Of a stretch of 64,000 nucleotides of DNA, positions 1-8,140 are shown piece after piece. The notes below the pieces were generated by a model. The model did no database searches. It was not told where the DNA came from and saw only the letters and a program-made list of their open reading frames with translations. The position numbers were made by a program, and so were the translations under genes. This stretch comes from an uncultured Thermoprotei archaeon (GTDB lineage Archaea > Thermoproteota > Thermoprotei > Thermofilales > B15-G2). Within the stretch, counting starts at the first letter, position 1; each line of letters starts with the position of its first letter. Location: the NCBI GenBank assembly GCA_965367815.1, contig CBDUKN010000003.1:68794-132793 (forward strand), written 5' to 3'.

Positions 1-35
1 AGAGAATTCGGTATCTATAAGCTGTACTCAACTTT

Positions 36-290
36 CTAGACTATTACGGGAATATTTGCTTCTCTTAATAACTTTCTGAAAACCGATATGCTTATTTTAG
101 CTATTTTACAAGCTCTCCTAATATCTCCTGTTTCTATGTAGTATTTTAGTGCTGCTTTTATTCTAGGTGGCTGTTTTTCAATAAAATTCCAGTCAGCATA
201 CTTACGCCTAATCTCCCTAAACTCCTCTTCTTCTCTACGGATTTTTTCAAGTAGTTCTTTTTCATAGTCTTTTACTTCAGCTTCAGACAT
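36..290 (-). CDS. UPF0175-like HTH antitoxin, downstream copy in an antitoxin-PIN-antitoxin triad (cassette A)
   Basis: 84-aa ORF whose start overlaps the PIN gene end by 19 nt. The central block EEEEFREIRRKYADWNFIEKQPPRIKAALKYYIETGD is identical to ORF 825..1064. The C-terminal tail (...ISVFRKLLREANIPV) resembles the HTH tail of UPF0175 antitoxins that pair with DUF3368-type PIN proteins. Family name is from memory of the pattern. Confidence 0.6.
   Translation of the reverse strand: MSEAEVKDYEKELLEKIRREEEEFREIRRKYADWNFIEKQPPRIKAALKYYIETGDIRRACKIAKISISVFRKLLREANIPVIV
124..241. repeat. 118-nt perfect direct repeat, copy 1 (inside antitoxin gene 36..290)
   Basis: Aligned by hand: 124..241 matches 913..1030 at 118/118 positions. 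The flanking bases differ immediately on both sides. Confidence 0.9.
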
Positions 291-835
291 TTAATCACCT
301 TATCGATAGCGTATTTTAGATCAGAGCGGGGGAAAATATGCTTTGTGTCGTTTTCATACTCTCTAAATACTCTTTCAACATCTTCTCTCTTTTTCACCTT
401 AATTGTTTTTCTAATAATTGCTTCAGTTAGTACTTCAAGAGCTCTCCACACTACTACGTTTTTCAGTTCACTTAGTGTTCTTGTAGCTAGTAAAGCTCCT
501 CTATTTTCCGTTAAAACTATAGCATTAAGCCTCTGCCCCACTACTAAGCAAATAGCCTCAGGCAAGTCTACTTTCCTTAAAAAAGGCTTCGAGGATATCT
601 TCAATACGAGTTCTTCAGCTTTTCTTAAGTCGAGGGGGGAAGGAGTAAACAGTAACATGTTTCCTTTAGCTAGCTGCGCAGAAACCCATGAAATACTCTT
701 CTCGTCTTCTATCTCAGCTAATACTTGTTCTGGTACTAGTATAGTTTTGAAGATTTCTGTAAGGATACTTCTTCTACGATAGTAGGCCCAGTCGATAATA
801 AAACAGGTGTCAGATATAGCTAGTTTAAGCGACAT
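272..835 (-). CDS. PIN-domain protein (DUF3368-like predicted nuclease), toxin of cassette A
   Basis: 187-aa ORF with N-terminal LAISDTCFIIDWA (acidic PIN residue) and a later D-x-PEA motif. It is flanked on both sides by overlapping small antitoxin-like ORFs and is a paralog of ORF 6312..6818. Confidence 0.65.
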   Translation of the reverse strand: MSLKLAISDTCFIIDWAYYRRRSILTEIFKTILVPEQVLAEIEDEKSISWVSAQLAKGNMLLFTPSPLDLRKAEELVLKISSKPFLRKVDLPEAICLVVGQRLNAIVLTENRGALLATRTLSELKNVVVWRALEVLTEAIIRKTIKVKKREDVERVFREYENDTKHIFPRSDLKYAIDKVIKCLKLK

Positions 836-1064
836 TTGGTATCCCGGCTTTTCTTCTTAGCTCATTCATTTTTCCTACAGTTACTCCAGCTATTCTCGAG
901 GCTACGTAGAGGTCTCCTGTTTCTATGTAGTATTTTAGTGCTGCTTTTATTCTAGGTGGCTGTTTTTCAATAAAATTCCAGTCAGCATACTTACGCCTAA
1001 TCTCCCTAAACTCCTCTTCTTCTCTACGGAACTTTTCTAGAATTTTATTTACTTTTTTCTCCAA
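825..1064 (-). CDS. UPF0175-like HTH antitoxin, upstream copy of cassette A
   Basis: 79-aa ORF that overlaps the PIN start by 11 nt. It has the same central block as ORF 36..290 but a different C-terminal tail (GDLYVASRIAGVTVGKMNELRRKAGIPNVA). Confidence 0.6.
   Translation of the reverse strand: MEKKVNKILEKFRREEEEFREIRRKYADWNFIEKQPPRIKAALKYYIETGDLYVASRIAGVTVGKMNELRRKAGIPNVA
913..1030. repeat. 118-nt perfect direct repeat, copy 2 (inside antitoxin gene 825..1064)
   Basis: Identical to 124..241 and lies 789 nt away in direct orientation. The PIN gene sits between the two copies. Confidence 0.9.
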
Positions 1065-1178
1065 GAGGTTCCCCAGTAGACATTCTTTTTTCTCTAATTA
1101 ATTTATTTGTTGCTTAAAGGAAACCCCTAAATTCCTTTTCTAGTCGAAGAATATTACTTTATTTTGTATTGAAAATAA

Positions 1179-1638
1179 TTGAATGGTGAGAGTATCTCGG
1201 GTAAAGAATTAAGAATTTACCGCGACACTTTAATGGCGGTTATGGGTCATATTCTAGTAATGCTTTATGACGAAGAGGCTTTAGATATGTTATCGGACTG
1301 GCTTTACCGTAAGAGAAGAGTGGAGAGAAAAGTCTAAAGCTATTAAAGATAAAAGTGCGGAATTTTTTTTAAGATTCTTTAGTAATGAAGCACATGAATA
1401 TGAAATTGTTAGAAAAGATAAAGATGTTTTAGAAGTTAAAGTCTACAAATGTATTCACGCAGAGGTATTTAGAAAACTAAACGCCACGAATATAGGCTAT
1501 AAGCTAATATGTAGAGGAGACGATGCTGCAACAGAAGGATTTAGCCCGGATATAGAGCTTATACGTCCTAAAATTTTAATGAAAGGAGACGACTGCTGCC
1601 ACTTTATATGGAGACGTAAAAAGAGAGCCGAAAGCTAG
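1179..1638 (+). pseudogene. Frameshifted gene, possibly of the L-2-amino-thiazoline-4-carboxylate (ATC) hydrolase-like family
   Basis: Manual translation gives two frames. Frame 1 (1179-1337) reads ...ESISGKELRIYRDTLMAVMGHILVMLYDEEALDMLSDWLYRKRRVERKV*. Frame 2, open from 1285 to the stop at 1636-1638, reads KAIKDKSAEFFLRFF...VYKCIHAEVFRKLNATNIGYKLICRGDDAATEGFSPDIELIRPKILMKGDDCCHFIWRRK. The C..H..F / C.GD / G..C.F pattern recalls Pfam ATC_hydrolase. One frameshift lies near 1320-1337. Confidence 0.45.
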
Positions 1639-1647
1639 CGTAGGCGC

Positions 1648-2721
1648 TCAAGGTACTATTTCGACTGTATTATTGAATGGAGGATACTTAATATCGTTCA
1701 ATGAAACAACGCCTGCTTTCAGAGACTCAGCAATTTTAATACATGCTTTCTTTAAGAGGTCTATTAAGTACATTGTTGTGCTACAGACTTTTCTAAAGCC
1801 TTTTTCTCCCCAAAGTCTCTCTACGTGTGCATAGAGACATCGTCCTCCACAGTAATCTAAATAAGAGCACTGGGTGCAAGGGGGTCCTATATAATACTTT
1901 TTAAGGGTTCGAGGTGTATCGCGGGAAATATGGCCTGCTTCAGCCCACTTCTCGTATACTGCTATAGGGCAGGCTAATATTCTCCCATCTGTAGAGATAG
2001 CATAAGCTGAAACGCCGGCTCCACATGGAGGTTTCTCGAGAGGAGTTTTTGTTAGAATAGCATAAGCTATTGCTTTAAACGGCGCTATTCCAGGCACGGT
2101 TCCCTTCTCTATTTCACTAGTCCAGTACTCTATTAGCTTAGCTAAGCCAGGCATATATGTTGAATAGAGCCATTTATCGAAGTTTCGCCACCTATTGCTC
2201 CAAATTACGTCAAGCTGCCAGTGCACGTGATCGAACAGCTTTAGTGAAAGAAGATGCATTACATCTCGGTAAATATCGCTTTCTTCACTTACAGCCATTC
2301 TGGCAATTAAGTCTCCCTTAAAGCCTATTTTCCTCAACCACTTAGCTGCGGCTAATACTTTGTCGTAAATACCCCTGCCTCTATAGTAGTCTGTAACTTC
2401 TTTAACTCCGTCAATTGAAAGCAATACTGCGTCAAAACGTCTCCAATATTTCTCGTGAAGCCTATGTACGAGAGTAGCGTTAGTCTGAATAACGTATTTC
2501 GCCCAGCCAATAGAATCCATTACTTTCTCTATAAAGACATGATTTAAGAGTGGCTCGCCTCCATAGAAAGCAATAATGGGATCTGGGTCTTCTTCAATAA
2601 ACTTAATGAGGTCTCTCAAAGAATACTTTATCTCCCAAGGAACTACTTCAGGCGGAAAACTTCCACCACAGTAAATACATTTTAAGTTACATTGACCAGT
2701 AGTAAGTACTATATATAACAC
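1648..2721 (-). CDS. Radical SAM enzyme with C-terminal SPASM domain (AF0577/TIGR04084-like putative peptide-modifying enzyme)
   Basis: 357 aa. The N-terminal CNLKCIYC is the CxxxCxxC radical-SAM cluster motif. The C-terminal Cys-rich segment (PPCGAG...ILACP...CTQCSYLDYCGGRC) is typical of SPASM auxiliary clusters. Confidence 0.85.
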   Translation of the reverse strand: MLYIVLTTGQCNLKCIYCGGSFPPEVVPWEIKYSLRDLIKFIEEDPDPIIAFYGGEPLLNHVFIEKVMDSIGWAKYVIQTNATLVHRLHEKYWRRFDAVLLSIDGVKEVTDYYRGRGIYDKVLAAAKWLRKIGFKGDLIARMAVSEESDIYRDVMHLLSLKLFDHVHWQLDVIWSNRWRNFDKWLYSTYMPGLAKLIEYWTSEIEKGTVPGIAPFKAIAYAILTKTPLEKPPCGAGVSAYAISTDGRILACPIAVYEKWAEAGHISRDTPRTLKKYYIGPPCTQCSYLDYCGGRCLYAHVERLWGEKGFRKVCSTTMYLIDLLKKACIKIAESLKAGVVSLNDIKYPPFNNTVEIVP

Positions 2722-2933
2722 AGCTAGCTGTGAAAAACAAAATTTATTTCTTGCGTCTAACTACCTTATATTCCAGTCACAACTTTAATGAGCAAAATCT
2801 TACAATTTATTTTATTTAAATAAGTTAATGTCAAGCAAAGTGTATTAAATATAGGTTTTTATAAGCAAACATTAGCTTAATTTTATTCAAGTATAGATAG
2901 AAATAAATAAGTTGTGTAGCTAAAGTAAGTGTT

Positions 2934-3962
2934 ATGGTTTCCGCGGAATTTAAAAGAATTAAGCTTATCTTTGCGCCTAGAACAGTAGTCACTTTTTCTA
3001 ATAGAATTGAAGAATTGAAGAAATTACTGAATCTTGCTCGCAGGGGGCATGCCTTTCCAGTAGTAGTATTTGGGCCCGAAGGATGCGGTAAAACAGCATT
3101 GCTTAAGCAGCTGGTATTATTGTTGAAAGAAGAAGGTATAGAGGTAGTTTATGTGGATACTTTAGAGGAAAATATAGATAGAGCAATATTAGCTTCGCCA
3201 GAATTAAAAGAAGCATTAGTTTCGCTTTCAGAGGCCGTTATGGGGCCTTTAGGGAAAACATTAGCATATGCAGCAATAGCTGTAGTATCAAAGATTCTTT
3301 CTAAAGTAAAGAGTGAAAACTTAGTAATTATTGTGGATGAAGTCTTTCAAGCAGTAGGTTTAGATAACGCAGCCATATATATTAAAAAGGCTTTAAATTT
3401 GCTTGAGTATCCTCCTGACTTACGTAAAAGAATACTAATTATTCTCACAACATCGGAGGGAATTTCTCGAAAAGAAGTAGCTAGACATGGGTGGGCTGAT
3501 ATAAAAGAGATATGGAATTTAAGTTTCACTGGACTAAAAGAACTTTATGACCAGCTACCAGAGCCAAAGCCGGACTACAGTCAAGTATGGAGAATTACTG
3601 GAGGAAATCCTCGTATACTAAAACAATACTATATTAGAGACTGGAGTGTAGAAAATCTCATTAAGTGGCTTATAGTGGAAAGAGGCTTAGAAACAGAGAT
3701 TGCTAAAATAGTAAAAGAACACGGAAAAACTCTACTGATCGAGGGATTAGAGGATCCCGACCTACTACTTAACGATTATCAGCTTTATTTAAAGCTCGAA
3801 AAACTAAACTTAATAGTAGATCTTCATGACAGAAGCTATAGCGAAGGGTGGATAGGAGCACCACCGCCTAAAAACCCGGAACTAGGTGTAGGAAATAAAA
3901 TAGCTTGGCAAACACCTTTACATAAGGAAGCTGTACAAAAAATTATTCAACAAATAGCATAA
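2934..3962 (+). CDS. Archaeal ATPase family P-loop NTPase (Arch_ATPase-like)
   Basis: 342 aa with Walker A VVVFGPEGCGKTALLKQ and Walker B LVIIVDEVFQ. The N-terminal F..R..E...L context is typical of PF01637-type archaeal ATPases. Confidence 0.7.
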   Translation: MVSAEFKRIKLIFAPRTVVTFSNRIEELKKLLNLARRGHAFPVVVFGPEGCGKTALLKQLVLLLKEEGIEVVYVDTLEENIDRAILASPELKEALVSLSEAVMGPLGKTLAYAAIAVVSKILSKVKSENLVIIVDEVFQAVGLDNAAIYIKKALNLLEYPPDLRKRILIILTTSEGISRKEVARHGWADIKEIWNLSFTGLKELYDQLPEPKPDYSQVWRITGGNPRILKQYYIRDWSVENLIKWLIVERGLETEIAKIVKEHGKTLLIEGLEDPDLLLNDYQLYLKLEKLNLIVDLHDRSYSEGWIGAPPPKNPELGVGNKIAWQTPLHKEAVQKIIQQIA

Positions 3963-3974
3963 AACAATAGAAAT

Positions 3975-5048
3975 TTATACTGCTAAATATTCTGCTACAT
4001 ATATATGTGCTGGAGTTTTAGACGGCTTATATATGATCCTCGCTAATAGGGCTTCATGATTTACTTTCTCTTTAAGTAACTTATTCCCGAGTACACTAAC
4101 AGTATCGTATTCTTCCCATGTTCCTGATAGAGTGTATATTTCGATGCGGAGTGTTCCAGGAGCACTTGCCTTGAAGAGTACTGTTTTATTCTTTAAGTCG
4201 TAGGCGGGTACTGGATGGCTTATTATTTCGCTTTCTATAGTGCTTCCCGCTAATGTTTCATCTGAGCCATATTTACAGAACTTTAAAGCAAACTTTGGCT
4301 CAGGGTTTCCTGGAAGAACTCTTAGGTTCCATGGATGTAGGTCTTCCCAAACGTATTCTCCTTCAGGGCATCCATCGATGTCTAGCAGTATAGAGAGATG
4401 TGTTGACGGCTTTACTGGAGCTAGTGCTACCGCGTAGGGAGGCTTGTTTGTAATCACATGTTTACCTAAGTTGTGTTCTGGGTAGAGTATTATGCCTCGT
4501 ATTTTCCCGTCTATTAGCCAGACTGCCATAGACCTGTATACGTGTATAGAGTACACGTGTCTTTTCTCAGCATAGTCTAGGGGAAATCCGGGTAGCTCTA
4601 CGCAGACTGGCTCAGGAAATGCTCCAGCGCACGCAGCTAAGCTTCCAGGCGTTCCCGGCACAAATCTGTAATGTATTACTCCTCCTCCGAACAAGTCTTC
4701 TATTTCGAAGCCAAACCAGAGTGTCGGTCCTTTAGGCCAGGGTGGGAGCTTTACAGTGAGGTCGAAGACTCCGTAGGGGAAAGTGTCTTTAGATCGGAGA
4801 GATACTGTGACTACTTCCTTGGGCTTAATGTACGCAGCTTTAGTGAACACTGTGTACTGTTTTTCACGATAGTCGAAAAGCCAGTACCGTGAAGCCTTAT
4901 CGAGAATAAATTCTTCGCCAAAGTCTTCTCCTCCACGTCTCCTTATCCAGCAGTAGAAGATCTCATCTACGCTTTCATGCATAAATCTAGCTAGCCTTAT
5001 TCCTCTGTGGCTCATGTAGCATTTTCTTTCAGAAAGTATATATAACAA
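3975..5048 (-). CDS. Hypothetical protein, beta-rich (possible jelly-roll/lectin-like fold)
   Basis: Long 357-aa ORF with a non-repetitive composition. I recognise no motif with confidence. The true start may be the internal Met at 5015 (MSHRG...). Confidence 0.45.
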   Translation of the reverse strand: MLYILSERKCYMSHRGIRLARFMHESVDEIFYCWIRRRGGEDFGEEFILDKASRYWLFDYREKQYTVFTKAAYIKPKEVVTVSLRSKDTFPYGVFDLTVKLPPWPKGPTLWFGFEIEDLFGGGVIHYRFVPGTPGSLAACAGAFPEPVCVELPGFPLDYAEKRHVYSIHVYRSMAVWLIDGKIRGIILYPEHNLGKHVITNKPPYAVALAPVKPSTHLSILLDIDGCPEGEYVWEDLHPWNLRVLPGNPEPKFALKFCKYGSDETLAGSTIESEIISHPVPAYDLKNKTVLFKASAPGTLRIEIYTLSGTWEEYDTVSVLGNKLLKEKVNHEALLARIIYKPSKTPAHIYVAEYLAV

Positions 5049-5117
5049 ACGTTAGCAGAAAGTTTCTTACACTAAAACTCATTTATAGCTGAGTCAAGAA
5101 GAAAAAGCGGCGAGTAA

Positions 5118-6047
5118 ATGCTAGAAAAGAGGCTTTTTTACCTTATTATAGACCAGTTTCCAGGACACTGGGCTGAAGGAATATACGTCGACGAAGAAAA
5201 GAAAATTCCTCCTGTAAATGTCTTAGACTACCATGAGAGAGGACTAATACCTAATTTCTCTGAACTAATAAAAACAGGGATATGGATCAAGAGACCATGG
5301 AATAGAGGAGTCTGCAAAACGGGGTATGGTCTGAAATACTTGTCTACAGGAACATATAATACTAAAGTAGATGTAGGTTTCTTCGAATATGTAGCAAATA
5401 ATTATGAGAAAGCTAAAGTAGCTACTTTTTTCACACTCCCTTGGGGTACAAAAGGATACCTTTATGTGCCAGGCTACATGATTAGCTTGCCACCATACTA
5501 CCCTGATGACATAATGTGGAGAGATTTCGTGGAACCCTATCTCAAAGATCATTCTGACTGGGACATAGTATGCGTTTATTTCCCGACAAACGACCAAGTA
5601 CTCTTCTGTCCATCATATCAAGAGAAAAATGCTCACCCTAAATCTTCTAAACACGCCTACATGCTCTACTTAGATAAACTGCTAGGAGAAATAGTTAAGC
5701 TACTTAAATGCGAAGGCTACTGGAAAGATACAGTATTCGTAATAGCGTCAGACCACGGTTATCATCTTGGATGTGAAGTCTGCTATATGAAAGGAGCAAG
5801 AACAGCGAACTTTGTCTACGACCACATAGAGCCATATGACTGCTACATATGGGATTTTAAGGAAAATAAGAAAACAGTAAAGTACAGCGGCGGACCTAGG
5901 AGAATAACATTCATAGTGTCTGGAGAAGGACTTGAGGGACATTTAAGAGGAACTATCATTGAAGAAGCAGAGATAATTGATGTAATTCCAACAATAGCTA
6001 AACTACTCAATATACCCTACAAGTGTGAAGGAAAAAGTGTAGTGTAG
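5118..6047 (+). CDS. Alkaline-phosphatase superfamily protein (type I phosphodiesterase/nucleotide pyrophosphatase- or sulfatase-like)
   Basis: 309 aa with N-terminal LIIDQFPGHW and C-terminal VFVIASDHGYHLG (the SDHG motif of the AP superfamily). No C/S-x-P-x-R sulfatase signature was found. Confidence 0.6.
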   Translation: MLEKRLFYLIIDQFPGHWAEGIYVDEEKKIPPVNVLDYHERGLIPNFSELIKTGIWIKRPWNRGVCKTGYGLKYLSTGTYNTKVDVGFFEYVANNYEKAKVATFFTLPWGTKGYLYVPGYMISLPPYYPDDIMWRDFVEPYLKDHSDWDIVCVYFPTNDQVLFCPSYQEKNAHPKSSKHAYMLYLDKLLGEIVKLLKCEGYWKDTVFVIASDHGYHLGCEVCYMKGARTANFVYDHIEPYDCYIWDFKENKKTVKYSGGPRRITFIVSGEGLEGHLRGTIIEEAEIIDVIPTIAKLLNIPYKCEGKSVV

Positions 6048-6087
6048 CCAGACAGAAATATTTAGTTCATAATGCTTAATTAAAGAC

Positions 6088-6312
6088 GTGAAGATAGAAG
6101 AGTATTTGAAAGAGCTTGAGAAGGCTCGTGAGTTTCGTAGACGTATGGCTGACTGGAAGTATATTGAATCAAGGCCAGAACCACTAAAAACAGCCCTAAA
6201 GCTTCTCGTAGAAACAGGAGATCTATGGTATTCTGCTACAATGACAGGAATACCTGTTGACTTGCTTAACGAGGAAAGAATTAAAGCAAAAATACCGCTC
6301 ACGGTGATTTAG
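6088..6312 (+). CDS. UPF0175-like HTH antitoxin, upstream copy of cassette B
   Basis: 74-aa ORF. Its stop overlaps the GTG start of the PIN gene (TAGTG). The central block ELEKAREFRRRMADWKYIESRPEPLKTALKLLVETGD is identical to ORF 6808..7110. Confidence 0.6.
   Translation: MKIEEYLKELEKAREFRRRMADWKYIESRPEPLKTALKLLVETGDLWYSATMTGIPVDLLNEERIKAKIPLTVI
6110..6221. repeat. 112-nt perfect direct repeat, copy 1 (inside antitoxin gene 6088..6312)
   Basis: Aligned by hand: 6110..6221 matches 6908..7019 at 112/112 positions, with mismatches immediately outside. Confidence 0.9.
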
Positions 6313-6818
6313 TGGAGTTAGCTATAGTAGATACATGTTTTCTAATAAACTGGGCTAAATTCAGACAGAAAAACGATATATTTAATATTTTCTCAAAACT
6401 AATCATACCATCTATTATATATACTGAAGTGAGAAGTGAGTCAGCACGAAGCTTTATAGCAAGACTTATGGCTGAGAAGCGGATTCTCCTTGCTCCGCGA
6501 ATAAGTCAAGTAGATATCCTCGCTTTAAAGATCTACGATTTGATAAACTCTCATCCATCTCTTCCTTCAATAGATCCTCCGGAAGCATACGCTTTAGCTT
6601 TAGCCAAGTATCTAGAGAAACCTCTGCTAACGGATAATGCTTCACCCAGACTAGCAGTAGAGGTGATAAATGAAGTTAAAGGAGTGAGAGTCTATGATTC
6701 TTTAATGCTTTTAGCTAAACTATATAAAGGTAATCTGTTCAGAAGAAAGGTTAAAGAATTTATAGAAGATACACATATATTTTTCTCAGAAAAAAGGCTA
6801 AGAGAATATGGACTCTGA
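6312..6818 (+). CDS. PIN-domain protein (DUF3368-like), toxin of cassette B
   Basis: 168 aa with a GTG start. Contains LAIVDTCFLINWA and D-P-PEA motifs. It is a paralog of 272..835 and is flanked by antitoxin-like ORFs on both sides. Confidence 0.65.
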   Translation: MELAIVDTCFLINWAKFRQKNDIFNIFSKLIIPSIIYTEVRSESARSFIARLMAEKRILLAPRISQVDILALKIYDLINSHPSLPSIDPPEAYALALAKYLEKPLLTDNASPRLAVEVINEVKGVRVYDSLMLLAKLYKGNLFRRKVKEFIEDTHIFFSEKRLREYGL

Positions 6819-7110
6819 GGAATTAAAGTATTTTAAGAAAGTAGTTGAAGAAACTGGGCTCACTATAAACTGGAAGCTCTTTGAAAAAAGGATTAAGGAG
6901 CTTGAAGAAGAGCTTGAGAAGGCTCGTGAGTTTCGTAGACGTATGGCTGACTGGAAGTATATTGAATCAAGGCCAGAACCACTAAAAACAGCCCTAAAGC
7001 TTCTCGTAGAAACAGGAGACTTAAAAAAAGTATCTTATCTTTACTCTATACCGCTAGATACTTTAAATGAAGAAAGAATTAAGGCAAGAATACCTATTGT
7101 TGTAGTATAA
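6808..7110 (+). CDS. UPF0175-like HTH antitoxin, downstream copy of cassette B (N-terminally extended)
   Basis: 100-aa ORF overlapping the PIN end by 11 nt. It has the same core as 6088..6312 but a different tail (GDLKKVSYLYSIPLDTLNEERIKARIPIVVV). Confidence 0.6.
   Translation: MDSEELKYFKKVVEETGLTINWKLFEKRIKELEEELEKAREFRRRMADWKYIESRPEPLKTALKLLVETGDLKKVSYLYSIPLDTLNEERIKARIPIVVV
6908..7019. repeat. 112-nt perfect direct repeat, copy 2 (inside antitoxin gene 6808..7110)
   Basis: Identical to 6110..6221 and lies 798 nt away in direct orientation, bracketing the PIN gene. Confidence 0.9.
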
Positions 7111-7251
7111 TATCATAGACTTTGATTATCATTAAATTGTAATTAAATGTCAGCAAAATCAGACTATCTTTTGTGACATAAACTGAATGTAGTTTACTAA
7201 ACTGCTTACAGAGAAGATTAGTTATTTAAATATTAAACCGATTAATTAAAC

Positions 7252-8140
7252 ATGAGTATATATGAAAGTCTTCTAAGAGAGATTAGAGCATTACCCACAG
7301 TAGGTGCCCACGAGCACTTAGCACCGAAAAAGTCAGGCTTTCACTTAAACCCGATGTATGCTTCCTTTTCTCACACTATTCTGTAAACGACTTAATTTCA
7401 GCTGGCTGTCGTCCATGGGGTATATCTGCTCGAGAAAGATGAAAGCTAATACATTTTCTGAGAAATACTTCTATATCTTTAGAAGAGCGCTTTAAAGTAA
7501 TTGAGCCTTACATTAAGTATATAAAGTATGGCACTTACTATAGAGCGCTTAAAATAGCGTTGAAAGAGGTGTATGGCTATGATGAAGTAACTGGAGCAAC
7601 TATAAAGAAATTTCTAATAAAATGAAGGAGGAAAAAAGCCTAGAATATATGATAAAATTCTTGTAGAAAAATGTAGAGCAAGATATGTCTTACCTCAGTG
7701 GAGCGAACTATGTGATGATTTCAGGCAACTAGACCCAAGACACAACATACCTTTATTCCAAAAGTACCTTGAGACGAAGTTCGATTTATATCATATGGGC
7801 ATGCCTTGGGTACGTGACACTGCCTTTATAGCCAAAAACTACCACAACGTGTACTTGAATTTATGCTGGAGTCACATAGTTTCCTCACATATGACTGTAT
7901 CAGGGCTCCTAGAGTACTTTGATATTGTTCCAGTCAATAAGATAATAGCTTTCGGCGGCGACTACACAGTCTACTCTCTCGAGAAAAATTGTAAGTCACT
8001 TAAGAATAGCTGAAGAAAATATCGCTGAGGTATTAACTAAACTAGTAGAAGAGAGGAGGATAAGCGGCTTAAATGAGGCAGTAGAAGTCGCTAAAATGCT
8101 GTTCTATGAAAACCCTGTCGAGATCTATGGACTTAAGTAG
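7252..8140 (+). pseudogene. Amidohydrolase-family (Amidohydro_2-like) gene disrupted by multiple frameshifts
   Basis: Manual translation needs at least 4-5 frame changes. The pieces are MSIYESLLREIRALPTVGAHEHLAP... (metal-binding HxH); FLFSHYSVNDLISAG...; NTSISLEERFKVIEPYIKYIKYGTYYRALKIALKEVYGYDEV...; KPRIYDKILVEKCRARYVLPQW...NVYLNLCWSHIV...IIAFGGDYTVYSLEK; and VSHLRIAEENIAEVLTKLVEERRISGLNEAVEVAKMLFYENPVEIYGLK*. Only a 72-aa piece appears in the ORF track. Confidence 0.6.

Follow-up and report, generated by a model that had tools for sequence, protein, structure and literature searches.

Sequence evidence for long-lasting, segment-limited concerted evolution of the small genes flanking a VapC-like PIN gene in archaea

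Cassette A, near the start of the window (the whole 64,000-nt stretch of DNA analysed, from an uncultured Thermoprotei archaeon), is one copy of a conserved archaeal module in which a VapC-like PIN gene lies between two paralogous small genes, S1 upstream and S2 downstream. Comparison of such loci indicates that gene conversion has long kept one segment, the core shared by S1 and S2, evolving in concert. The initial annotation of this DNA had described cassette A as departing from the canonical two-gene layout and had proposed a survey for triads in other archaea. Three genes are indeed present, but this is not an oddity of the window: small gene-PIN-small gene is the standard layout of the family, found at 59 of 62 PIN-anchored genome loci from many orders of Thermoproteota and neighbouring archaeal groups, in varied genomic contexts. 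PaREP6-PIN-PaREP6 is a widespread archaeal three-gene architecture, absent from the two-gene surveys examined, and in the toxin-antitoxin (TA) and PIN literature searched we came across neither the triad nor its identical core. At about 40 triad loci the two small genes share a run of 60 nt or more (up to 132 nt) without a mismatch, and at 36 of about 59 the S1 stop and the PIN start have 11 nt in common. Most triad loci come from metagenome assemblies, with MEGAHIT, SPAdes and JGI contigs among them; in the two isolate genomes of the set, the longest intra-locus match was 11 nt (P. oguniense) and 43 nt (Thermoproteus sp. CP80). The PIN protein had no relatives in the plasmid and phage collections.

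The two cassettes and their proteins

Recomputation reproduced the 118/118 match between the direct repeats of cassette A and their spacing of 789 nt, and the gene overlaps (from the ORF coordinates) and the peptides quoted for the small proteins were likewise correct (Table 1). Independent gene callers returned the same 79-aa product for the upstream small gene. The sequence had been said to diverge immediately outside the repeat. This is so on the 3' side, where the change after the GD codons is abrupt, but on the 5' side of the genes a weaker similarity continues for ~20 nt, giving an extended repeat of 138 nt at 95% identity. Upstream and downstream cores of different loci have a mean identity of 64%, so for paralogues of such ancient divergence 118 matching nucleotides in a row are not expected by chance. 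A second triad, cassette B (6088-7110), has a perfect repeat of its own, 112 nt long, where the corresponding part of the small proteins is encoded, and the cores of the two cassettes share ~75% of their bases. The TATA-like, A/T-rich stretch upstream of the S1 start in cassette A is a possible operon promoter. A sigma-70 promoter and terminator scan of the locus was set aside, as the sigma-70 model is uninformative for an archaeon; the 'terminators' that it called map within the repeat, in antisense orientation.

Table 1. Features of the two cassettes in the window
Feature	Position	Strand	Description
Cassette A upstream small gene (S1 type, PaREP6-like)	825..1064	-	79 aa, TTG start
Cassette A S1 tail			GD followed by LYVASRIAGVTVGKMNELRRKAGIPNVA; S1 stop overlaps PIN start by 11 nt (825-835)
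Cassette A PIN-domain gene	272..835	-	187 aa; VapC-like PIN core (predicted) plus three-helix C-terminal extension
Cassette A downstream small gene (S2 type, PaREP6-like)	36..290	-	84 aa
Cassette A S2 tail			GD followed by IRRACKIAKISISVFRKLLREANIPVIV; S2 start overlaps PIN end by 19 nt (272-290)
Cassette A core repeat, upstream small gene copy	913..1030	-	118 nt; encodes ..RREEEEFREIRRKYADWNFIEKQPPRIKAALKYYIETGD
Cassette A core repeat, downstream small gene copy	124..241	-	118 nt; identical to 913-1030 at 118/118
TATA-like A/T-rich stretch AAATAAATTAATTAG	1092..1106	-	28-42 nt upstream of S1 TTG start
Cassette B upstream small gene (S1 position)	6088..6312	+	74 aa, GTG start
Cassette B PIN-domain gene	6312..6818	+	168 aa; 32% identical to cassette A PIN
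Cassette B downstream small gene (S2 position)	6808..7110	+	100 aa from first ATG; start position tentative
Cassette B core repeat, upstream copy	6110..6221	+	112 nt
Cassette B core repeat, downstream copy	6908..7019	+	112 nt; identical to 6110-6221 at 112/112, spacing 798

Profile searches matched the small proteins to UniRef entries named 'PaREP6' from Ignisphaera and Thermofilum (E 1e-34 to 1e-32, 58-77% identical). These matches cover both the S1 and the S2 type, and close homologues also bear the name 'predicted HTH domain antitoxin'. Pfam and NCBIfam scans of the small proteins gave nothing above cut-off, and profile searches of solved structures gave no meaningful match for either the small protein or the PIN family. 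The UPF0175 and DUF3368 labels used in the initial annotation proved weak. UPF0175 (PF03683) scored 14.9 bits against the downstream gene (E 0.021; gathering cut-off 27.9), did not match the upstream gene, and fell below E 0.01 in 9 of 76 family members (best 3.7e-4). DUF3368 (PF11848) did not match the window PIN protein at E <= 10 or any of its 36 homologues at E < 0.01, and a precomputed DUF3368 match to the cassette A protein is itself graded 'weak'. UPF0175 is known as the partner of COG2405/DUF3368 (Matelska et al., 2017; PMC5499597), and the COG2405 structure 2mdt was absent from the top 50 fold matches to PIN. The sub-threshold scores suggest that the small genes are a distant relative of UPF0175/COG2886, in agreement with what Makarova et al. 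(2009; PMC2701414) said of paREP6. They found COG2886/paREP6 small proteins adjoining PIN genes and, with PSI-BLAST, a weak resemblance between COG2886 and the Fis family.

The AF2 model of S2 (pLDDT 96.3) has a long helix followed by a tri-helical helix-turn-helix. When Foldseek was used to compare the small protein with structures, the best matches, to the helix-turn-helix domains of Fis, NtrC and sigma-4, were non-significant (E > 1). Of the long N-terminal helix, the core includes the C-terminal half; a short helix and helix 1 of the helix-turn-helix domain complete it, so that in the model the border between core and tail falls inside this domain, between helix 1 and helix 2, and not between domains. 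S1 and S2 differ in helices 2-3. By position, the upstream tail reads GD then LYVASRIAG...IPNVA, and the downstream tail GD then IRxAAKLAG...IPVVV. The two had been described as diverging DNA-binding tails; they do differ from each other, but each is strongly conserved by position, suggesting an ancient split of function.

The middle protein of cassette A models as a VapC-like PIN fold with a Rossmann-like alpha/beta/alpha core (AF2, pLDDT 95.6, pTM 0.90). The top Foldseek matches in the PDB are the VapC/PIN proteins 1w8i, 3zvk, 4chg and 2lcq (E 1e-4 to 1e-3), and among the top 50 nearly all are VapC, PIN or Nob1 proteins with a probability of ~1.0, eight of them at E <= 1e-3 and the others up to ~1e-2. 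Pfam PIN_6 matches with an E of 3e-4, below its cut-off. Across 36 PIN homologues the candidate acidic active-site residues D9, E41, E93 and E110 (a D in cassette B) vary little or not at all, and the conserved residues in the alignment also include T109-E110-N111.

Evidence for concerted evolution of the core, and PIN-less alleles

Core and tail give opposite answers when each copy is compared with all others at 54 loci. A core has its own partner as nearest neighbour in 86 of 108 cases; a tail, in 103 of 108, has the tail of the same position from a different locus. Synonymous sites follow the same division: within loci, pS is 0.285 in the core (median 0.20; 0.04-0.05 in the window) and 0.647 in the tail, and between the S1 and S2 cores of different loci it is 0.79. 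Per column, within-locus nucleotide identity is 0.85-1.0 across the core and, in the column after GD, drops to the level seen between S1 and S2 of different loci. Relative to the GD codon, the 3' end of the identical run lies at -1 to +2 nt in 18 of 40 loci, and at no locus does it pass that codon; the 5' start varies among loci. Patchy partial tracts also occur, for example in L011 and L003.

Related loci have substitutions shared by both copies, the products that conversion would leave behind. Within the 118-nt repeat, all four differences between cassette A and its syntenic counterpart in a sister taxon (L066) are identical in the two copies; in other locus pairs the same was true of 11/14, 21/26 and 22/30 differences. 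Not every locus is homogenised: shared substitutions are lacking in some lineages, as in the pair L055/L062 (0/31), and in 13 of the 54 loci the two copies of the 102-nt core differ at 20 or more positions. Across 46 locus pairs, the core pS of 0.53-0.55 equals that of PIN (0.51) and of the tails. For the window and its sister taxon alone, core pS is 0.00 against 0.45 for PIN, which plain neutral conversion does not predict.

The nearest neighbours, pS values and shared substitutions bear out the localised gene conversion or concerted evolution proposed in the initial annotation. Concerted evolution in the sense of Wang and Chen (2018; PMC6053082) describes paralogues that are closer to each other than to their orthologues in many lineages, are alike at synonymous sites as well, and stem from a duplication older than the homogenised lineages. 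Here, paralogues are closer than orthologues in many lineages in the core only, the likeness extends to synonymous sites (core pS 0.285 vs. 0.79), and the position-specific tails, common to all lineages, place the duplication before them.

Recombination between the repeats had also been predicted to delete the PIN gene and leave one chimeric small gene. A scan of metagenomes with an S2-only alignment recovered such alleles at four loci, in syntenic flanks: L078 vs. L002; L137, L140 and L142 vs. L003; L138 and L127 vs. L006; and L124 vs. L059. Each chimera joins the upstream N-terminus, the core and the downstream tail, with clean loss of PIN and flanks as in the triad, and aligning the alleles of each pair gives two blocks whose overlap is exactly the repeat. 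PIN-less chimeras account for roughly 14 of ~60 S2-anchored metagenome loci with enough upstream flank. These deletion alleles show the repeat recombining in real genomes. The reciprocal crossover product (small-PIN-chimera-PIN-small) was not seen among 142 loci; one candidate, L087 with L088, was rejected as two complete triads ~0.9 kb apart.

Explanations for the shared core

We give a probability of roughly 0.82 to an explanation that combines an ancient S1/S2 duplication, converted cores, loss of PIN by crossover and a TA-like module. The duplication is ancient, each version having been kept by position across Thermoproteota and related archaea. Recurrent non-reciprocal homologous recombination between the direct copies, ~0.75-0.8 kb apart, would overwrite one core, and such recurrent gene conversion would leave the cores identical or near-identical within a locus, synonymous sites included, while they drift between loci. 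On the 3' side, conversion tracts entering the tails would not be retained, likely because the tails do different jobs and because the PIN start codon is embedded in the final codons of S1 (..N-V-A-stop). The 5' limit of identity would arise because the S2 N-terminus is locked into the end of the overlapping PIN gene. If resolved by crossover, the recombination would remove everything from the S1 tail through PIN to the S2 N-terminus, and one chimeric gene of S1 N-terminus, core and S2 tail would remain.

The module is probably a PIN-type toxin-antitoxin-like operon, with S1 in what appears to be the classical, translationally coupled antitoxin position. S1 and S2 may both be Fis-like, pairing or contacting PIN by way of the core they have in common, with helix-turn-helix heads that differ between them. 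Of the two, S2 is more basic and keeps an Arg right after GD-I, which would make it the better candidate for operator binding; S1 would be the better candidate for toxin neutralisation. The repeats might themselves be selected as part of the function of the module, with ~100 nt of exact homology kept on either side of the toxin gene, the PIN unit popping out fairly often as a 0.75-0.8 kb circle that solo alleles could possibly recapture and the chimera giving immunity against related triads. We regard this as unlikely; if true, the locus would be an integrase-free, recombination-driven on/off or mobile toxin cassette.

A circle is also central to a very unlikely alternative, a mobile cassette in which the solo small gene is the resident and a ~0.75-0.8 kb circle (core, S1 tail, PIN and S2 N-terminus) integrates Campbell-type at the core, integration giving rise to the identical direct repeats and excision restoring the solo gene. 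Solo and triad alleles do occur in the same flanks with junctions exactly in the repeat, triads are found in varied contexts, and crossover deletion necessarily releases such a circle. However, the unit has no integrase or replication function, relatives are lacking in the plasmid and phage collections, and integration would need a near-identical core already present. The patchy partial tracts of L011 and L003 fit conversion better than a single integration, and the syntenic triads of the window and the sister taxon were inherited by descent yet changed in parallel in both copies, so that conversion would still be required. It is also quite unlikely that the repeats are kept as a switch by which lineages often shed PIN in bet-hedging, the chimera serving as an anti-addiction or immunity factor. 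Such a switch would suit the PIN-less chimeras, which recur at four or more independent loci and make up roughly 14 of the ~60 S2-anchored loci with enough upstream flank, and the persistence of identity across very deep divergences. Against it, chromosomal deletion is irreversible, the between-locus synonymous divergence of the core is ordinary (0.53-0.55 vs. 0.51 for PIN), and its outcome is indistinguishable from that of neutral recombination with purifying selection on the tails.

Constraint on both copies by a nucleotide-level element in the core, whether structured RNA, the target of an antisense RNA or a DNA site bound by protein, would fit the contrast between core and PIN in the window/sister-taxon pair. 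That pair is an exception: over the 46 locus pairs core synonymous divergence matches PIN and tails, so nucleotide-level conservation of the core between loci was rejected as a general rule, and cassettes A and B differ at about a quarter of core bases within one genome. An RNA-level explanation was rejected on the unremarkable folding z-scores of the core (-0.52 to +0.85, both strands, both cassettes) and the lack of any Rfam match at E <= 1 in window positions 1-8000. We consider such an element extremely improbable, and equally so that each lineage duplicated the small gene recently and independently, or that assembly copied one segment onto the other as an artefact. Recent duplication is refuted by the tails, which are orthologous by position in 103/108 cases with saturated synonymous divergence. 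An artefact, which the initial annotation had named as fatal to its reading, is suggested by the predominance of metagenome assemblies and by L024, where a run of N falls exactly in the downstream core, showing that the repeat can trouble assemblers. Yet the cassette A locus is identical in four independent assemblies, base for base in L063-L065 (0 mismatches), and the pattern recurs in cassette B and ~40 other loci and in contigs from MEGAHIT, SPAdes and JGI alike. The repeat is shorter than typical reads, the reading frame is kept, and the deletion alleles reveal recombination at the repeat in real genomes.

Comparison with known systems

On the conversion-and-crossover explanation, the locus is a compact and unusually clear case, with a sharp, conserved tract border, conversion products (the co-substitutions) and crossover products (the toxin-less alleles). 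Because all three are visible, rates of conversion and deletion in uncultured hyperthermophile populations should be measurable from metagenomic reads. A shared body with different helix-turn-helix heads offers a natural experiment for assigning toxin neutralisation and operon regulation to one part or the other. The repeats can break scaffolds, as the N run of L024 illustrates, and they are the reason that PaREP6-type genes were once catalogued as 'repetitive' elements.

In three-component TA systems such as omega-epsilon-zeta, paaR-paaA-parE and TAC (antitoxin-toxin-chaperone), a third gene, encoding an unrelated regulator or chaperone, modulates the pair. The triad likewise has a third gene in an operon with a probable toxin-antitoxin pair, but here this component is a paralogue of S1 with an identical N-terminal two-thirds. 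The predicted long helix followed by a C-terminal helix-turn-helix resembles E. coli Fis and dimers of the Fis/NtrC type, with Foldseek matches at E > 1.

In the module, as in the VapBC-type pairs (the predicted COG2886/paREP6-PIN and the UPF0175-COG2405 pairs), the gene for a PIN fold is preceded immediately upstream, with an overlap, by a small gene of the helix-turn-helix type. Like these pairs, the module is abundant in thermophilic archaea, with several paralogous copies per genome in varied contexts. It differs from two-gene VapBC-type pairs in the second, paralogous small gene that follows PIN in 59/62 loci and in the recombination-homogenised core that the small genes share, and from UPF0175/DUF3368 pairs in that its scores stay below the Pfam cut-offs.

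Long-lasting concerted evolution in prokaryotes has been described as exceedingly infrequent (PMC6053082). Domain-limited cases are known from mtrA-1/mtrA-2 in methanogens (PMC4632066) and from 26 genes (Wang & Chen, 2018). The small genes resemble these in being ancient paralogues of one operon in which one segment is homogenised, synonymous sites included, in many lineages and the other is divergent owing to distinct function. Unlike those core metabolic complexes, the module here is a small, accessory, toxin-antitoxin-like one; its converted tract is only ~100 nt long, with a border inside a domain, and its repeats flank a third gene, so that the toxin-loss crossover product exists as a natural polymorphism.

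Layout and distribution of the triad

In cassette A, a PIN-like gene lies between two paralogous small genes, S1 upstream and S2 downstream. The initial annotation had described a perfect direct repeat shared by S1 and S2 and gene overlaps of 11 nt and 19 nt; re-alignment of the window reproduced the repeat, and the gene coordinates gave the same overlaps. We refer to the near-identical middle segment of S1 and S2 as the core, and to the C-terminal part after the GD codons as the tail. Similarity fades over ~20 nt on the 5' side of the repeat, in gene orientation, and ends directly past the GD codons on the 3' side. Base for base, the locus is the same in three further assemblies of this organism, made independently (L063-L065). 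A tblastn search of the window with the three cassette A proteins returned a second triad, cassette B; the two cores are only ~75% identical.

Table. Features of cassettes A and B and neighbors of cassette A, in window positions
Feature	Position	Strand	Details
S2, cassette A	36-290	minus	84 aa
PIN-like gene, cassette A	272-835	minus	187 aa
S1, cassette A	825-1064	minus	79 aa, TTG start
Direct repeat, cassette A core	124-241 = 913-1030	minus	118/118 bases, 789 nt apart
ORF, neighbor	1179-1337	plus	52 aa, no family match
Radical SAM protein, neighbor	1648-2721	minus	PF04055, E 5e-15
Archaeal ATPase, neighbor	2934-3962	plus	PF01637, E 1e-53
Upstream small gene, cassette B	6088-6312	plus	
PIN gene, cassette B	6312-6818	plus	
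Downstream small gene, cassette B	6808-7110	plus	
Direct repeat, cassette B	6110-6221 = 6908-7019	plus	112/112, spacing 798, same protein segment as cassette A

Using an alignment of PIN homologues, we retrieved 62 loci, all in species-representative genomes, which are spread over Desulfurococcales, Pyrodictiaceae, Ignisphaera, Thermofilaceae, Thermoproteaceae, Bathyarchaeia, Nitrososphaeria and Methanomethylicia. Small homologues flank the PIN gene on both sides in 59 of them, and the other three are partial or at contig ends. The triad is the standard layout of this PIN family, beyond the window. The longest exact S1-S2 match is at least 60 nt in ~40 of these loci, with a maximum of 132 nt, and the two repeat copies lie 662-827 nt apart, depending on the locus. 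An uncultured Thermoproteales genome, CAZCFI01, carries at least five paralogous triads (L001, L015, L035, L056, L058), each with its own core sequence, so modules do multiply inside a genome, each remaining insulated from the others. Two complete triads (L087 3-2722 and L088 17-2561) stand in tandem on the same strand, ~0.9 kb apart. At one locus (L040 1878-2630) PIN and the downstream small gene are fused in a single 250-aa ORF, in which the C-terminal part of PIN is out of frame; this is probably a frameshift, due either to locus decay or to an error in sequencing. At another (L024 2961-3299), a stretch of N (X in translation) covers exactly the core of the downstream small gene, and the repeat can apparently mask or break assemblies.

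Core and tail evolution

In the translated genes, upstream copies end in GD followed by LYVASRIAGLTVEEFNELRIKARIPNVA, and downstream copies in GD followed by IRxAAKLAGLSLEEFRELLRKARIPVVV. Conservation per tail position reaches 98-100% within a class, and certain positions never match between classes. The S1/S2 duplication is thus ancient, with a core homogenized since. Within loci, nucleotide identity per codon column is 0.85-1.0 in the core and drops in the tail to the between-locus S1-S2 level; between loci, it is mostly 0.35-0.8 in the core and, in the tail, close to the within-locus values. The nearest neighbor of a core is its own partner in 86 of 108 cases, that of a tail the same position in another locus in 103 of 108. 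Within-locus synonymous divergence (pS) is 0.285 in the core (median 0.20; 0.04-0.05 in the window) versus 0.647 in the tail, and between-locus S1-S2 pS of the core is 0.79. Because core identity extends to synonymous sites, protein-level selection cannot be its source.

The sister-taxon locus, L066, is a syntenic orthologue with an 87% identical PIN protein and the same flanking genes; it also has an additional ATC_hydrolase gene, which separates the radical SAM gene from the triad. Of 1080 bases aligned with the window, 156 differ. The 118-nt repeat has only four differences, and each of the four is present identically in both copies. In other related locus pairs, 11/14, 21/26 and 22/30 core differences are common to both copies, and in lineages without continued conversion 0/31 and 5/39. 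In their number of core differences, loci form a continuum from 0 to 32 of 102, a spread as would be expected for episodic conversion.

On its 3' side, the identical run stops between -1 and +2 nt relative to the GD codon in 18 of 40 loci, and in none does it go further; its 5' start varies over ~30 codons. S1 stop and PIN start overlap by 11 nt in 36 of ~59 loci, the PIN ATG being formed from the Asn-Val codons of S1 (..IPNVA). Copying the S2 ending (..IPVVV) into S1 would abolish this start codon and so limit conversion at the 3' side; on the 5' side, the limit may be that the S2 N-terminus is encoded inside the 3' end of PIN. Residues directly past GD, L-Y-V in S1 versus I-R-x in S2, never match between copies, and S2 tails are the more basic in the mean, at +2.4 versus +1.4 for S1 (higher in S2 in 33 of 52 loci). 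One subfamily (L055, L057, L062, also L136, L150, L143) shares the second half of the tail between copies as well (14/84 tail bases differ in L057), and the copies differ only in the helix directly after GD, LWI(A/C)SR versus RRGAA(K/R).

PIN-less alleles and competing explanations

With S2-type genes as the anchor, a scan of metagenomes returned mostly triads, plus ~14 solo small genes without PIN that had ample upstream flank. For four solo cases, a corresponding triad exists between the same flanks, the outcome foreseen in the initial annotation, which had predicted recombination deleting PIN and leaving one chimeric gene. Solo L078 lacks 783 nt of triad L002 (flanks 95-97% identical); the two alignment blocks overlap by exactly the 112-nt repeat, and its protein runs from an S1 N-terminus through the core to an S2 tail. 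Solos L137, L140 and L142 lack 758 nt of triad L003 (flanks ~97%), L138 and L127 lack 777 nt of triad L006 (flanks 94-99% for L138), and L124 lacks one repeat unit of triad L059, from the isolate Thermoproteus sp. CP80 (flanks 89-97%). L075 looks like the same chimera type in a relative of cassette A, and L143 like a PIN-less recombinant via a second homology block, the shared second half of the tail in its subfamily. A further solo S2-type gene (L113 2429-2722) retains the S2 N-terminus, with flanks 95% (downstream) but only 78% (upstream) identical to the L006 triad locus, and is a rearrangement of another kind than the clean chimeras. No reciprocal duplication product was found among the 142 loci examined. 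Loss of the putative toxin is a natural by-product of recombination between the repeats.

The comparative loci and deletion alleles together support the earlier proposal of localized conversion or concerted evolution. A recent small-gene duplication is ruled out by the S1 and S2 tails, and an assembly artefact by the independent assemblies and deletion alleles. An RNA or DNA element preserving the core is unlikely: between loci, the core diverges at synonymous sites to an ordinary degree (0.53-0.55 versus 0.51 for PIN), and, for an RNA element, folding z-scores are unremarkable and Rfam gave no match. Selection of the repeats as a toxin-loss switch adds assumptions, as does a PIN unit that excises and re-integrates; both seem very improbable. 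Conversion that is neutral does not predict one result: between the window and L066 (1772-2791), pS is 0.00 in the 35-codon core, 0.45 in PIN and 0.60 in the S2 tail. Recent gene flow of the segment or lineage-specific constraint are possible causes.

Protein models and comparison with known systems

The PIN protein model (pLDDT 95.6) best matches the solved VapC/PIN structures AF1683, VapC2, VapC15 and Nob1 (E 1e-4 to 1e-3), with D9, E41, E93 and E110 conserved among homologues and three additional C-terminal helices outside VapC coverage. Pfam scans gave PIN_6 alone, under the cut-off, and no DUF3368 match; a precomputed DUF3368 hit is graded weak. The small protein model (pLDDT 96.3) has a long helix at 3-31, followed by a short one at 34-38 and a tri-helical helix-turn-helix at 42-54, 57-64 and 68-77. 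The core would thus span the long helix's C-terminal half, the short helix and helix 1 of the domain, with helices 2-3 forming the tail. Structural similarity to Fis, NtrC4 and sigma region 4 did not reach significance. The UPF0175 score is under the cut-off (14.9 vs. 27.9 bits), and 9 of 76 family members reach E < 0.01. A profile search returned 1045 relatives. The close ones, of S1 and S2 type alike and with Korarchaeum and Methanodesulfokora among them, carry the name PaREP6 in UniRef or 'predicted HTH domain antitoxin' in JGI. According to Makarova et al. (PMC2701414), the paREP6 group is a distant COG2886 subfamily often adjoining PIN genes. Neither that paper, Matelska et al. (PMC5499597) nor the literature searched mentions the triad or the identical core.

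Toxin and antitoxin roles in the triad are putative. In our working model, S1 and S2 would pair, or bind PIN, through their common body, and their heads would have different jobs; S2 is the likelier of the two to bind DNA, and S1 the likelier to be the coupled antitoxin.

The closest analogue of the core conversion is mtrA-1/mtrA-2, where conversion is domain-limited and long-lasting (PMC4632066). A second is the set of 26 genes of Wang and Chen (PMC6053082), who call such cases "exceedingly infrequent" and list no toxin-antitoxin genes. The recombination mechanism is already known; new, for a toxin-antitoxin-like system, is a conserved module of three genes in which the paralogues on either side of PIN are kept identical over ~100 nt.
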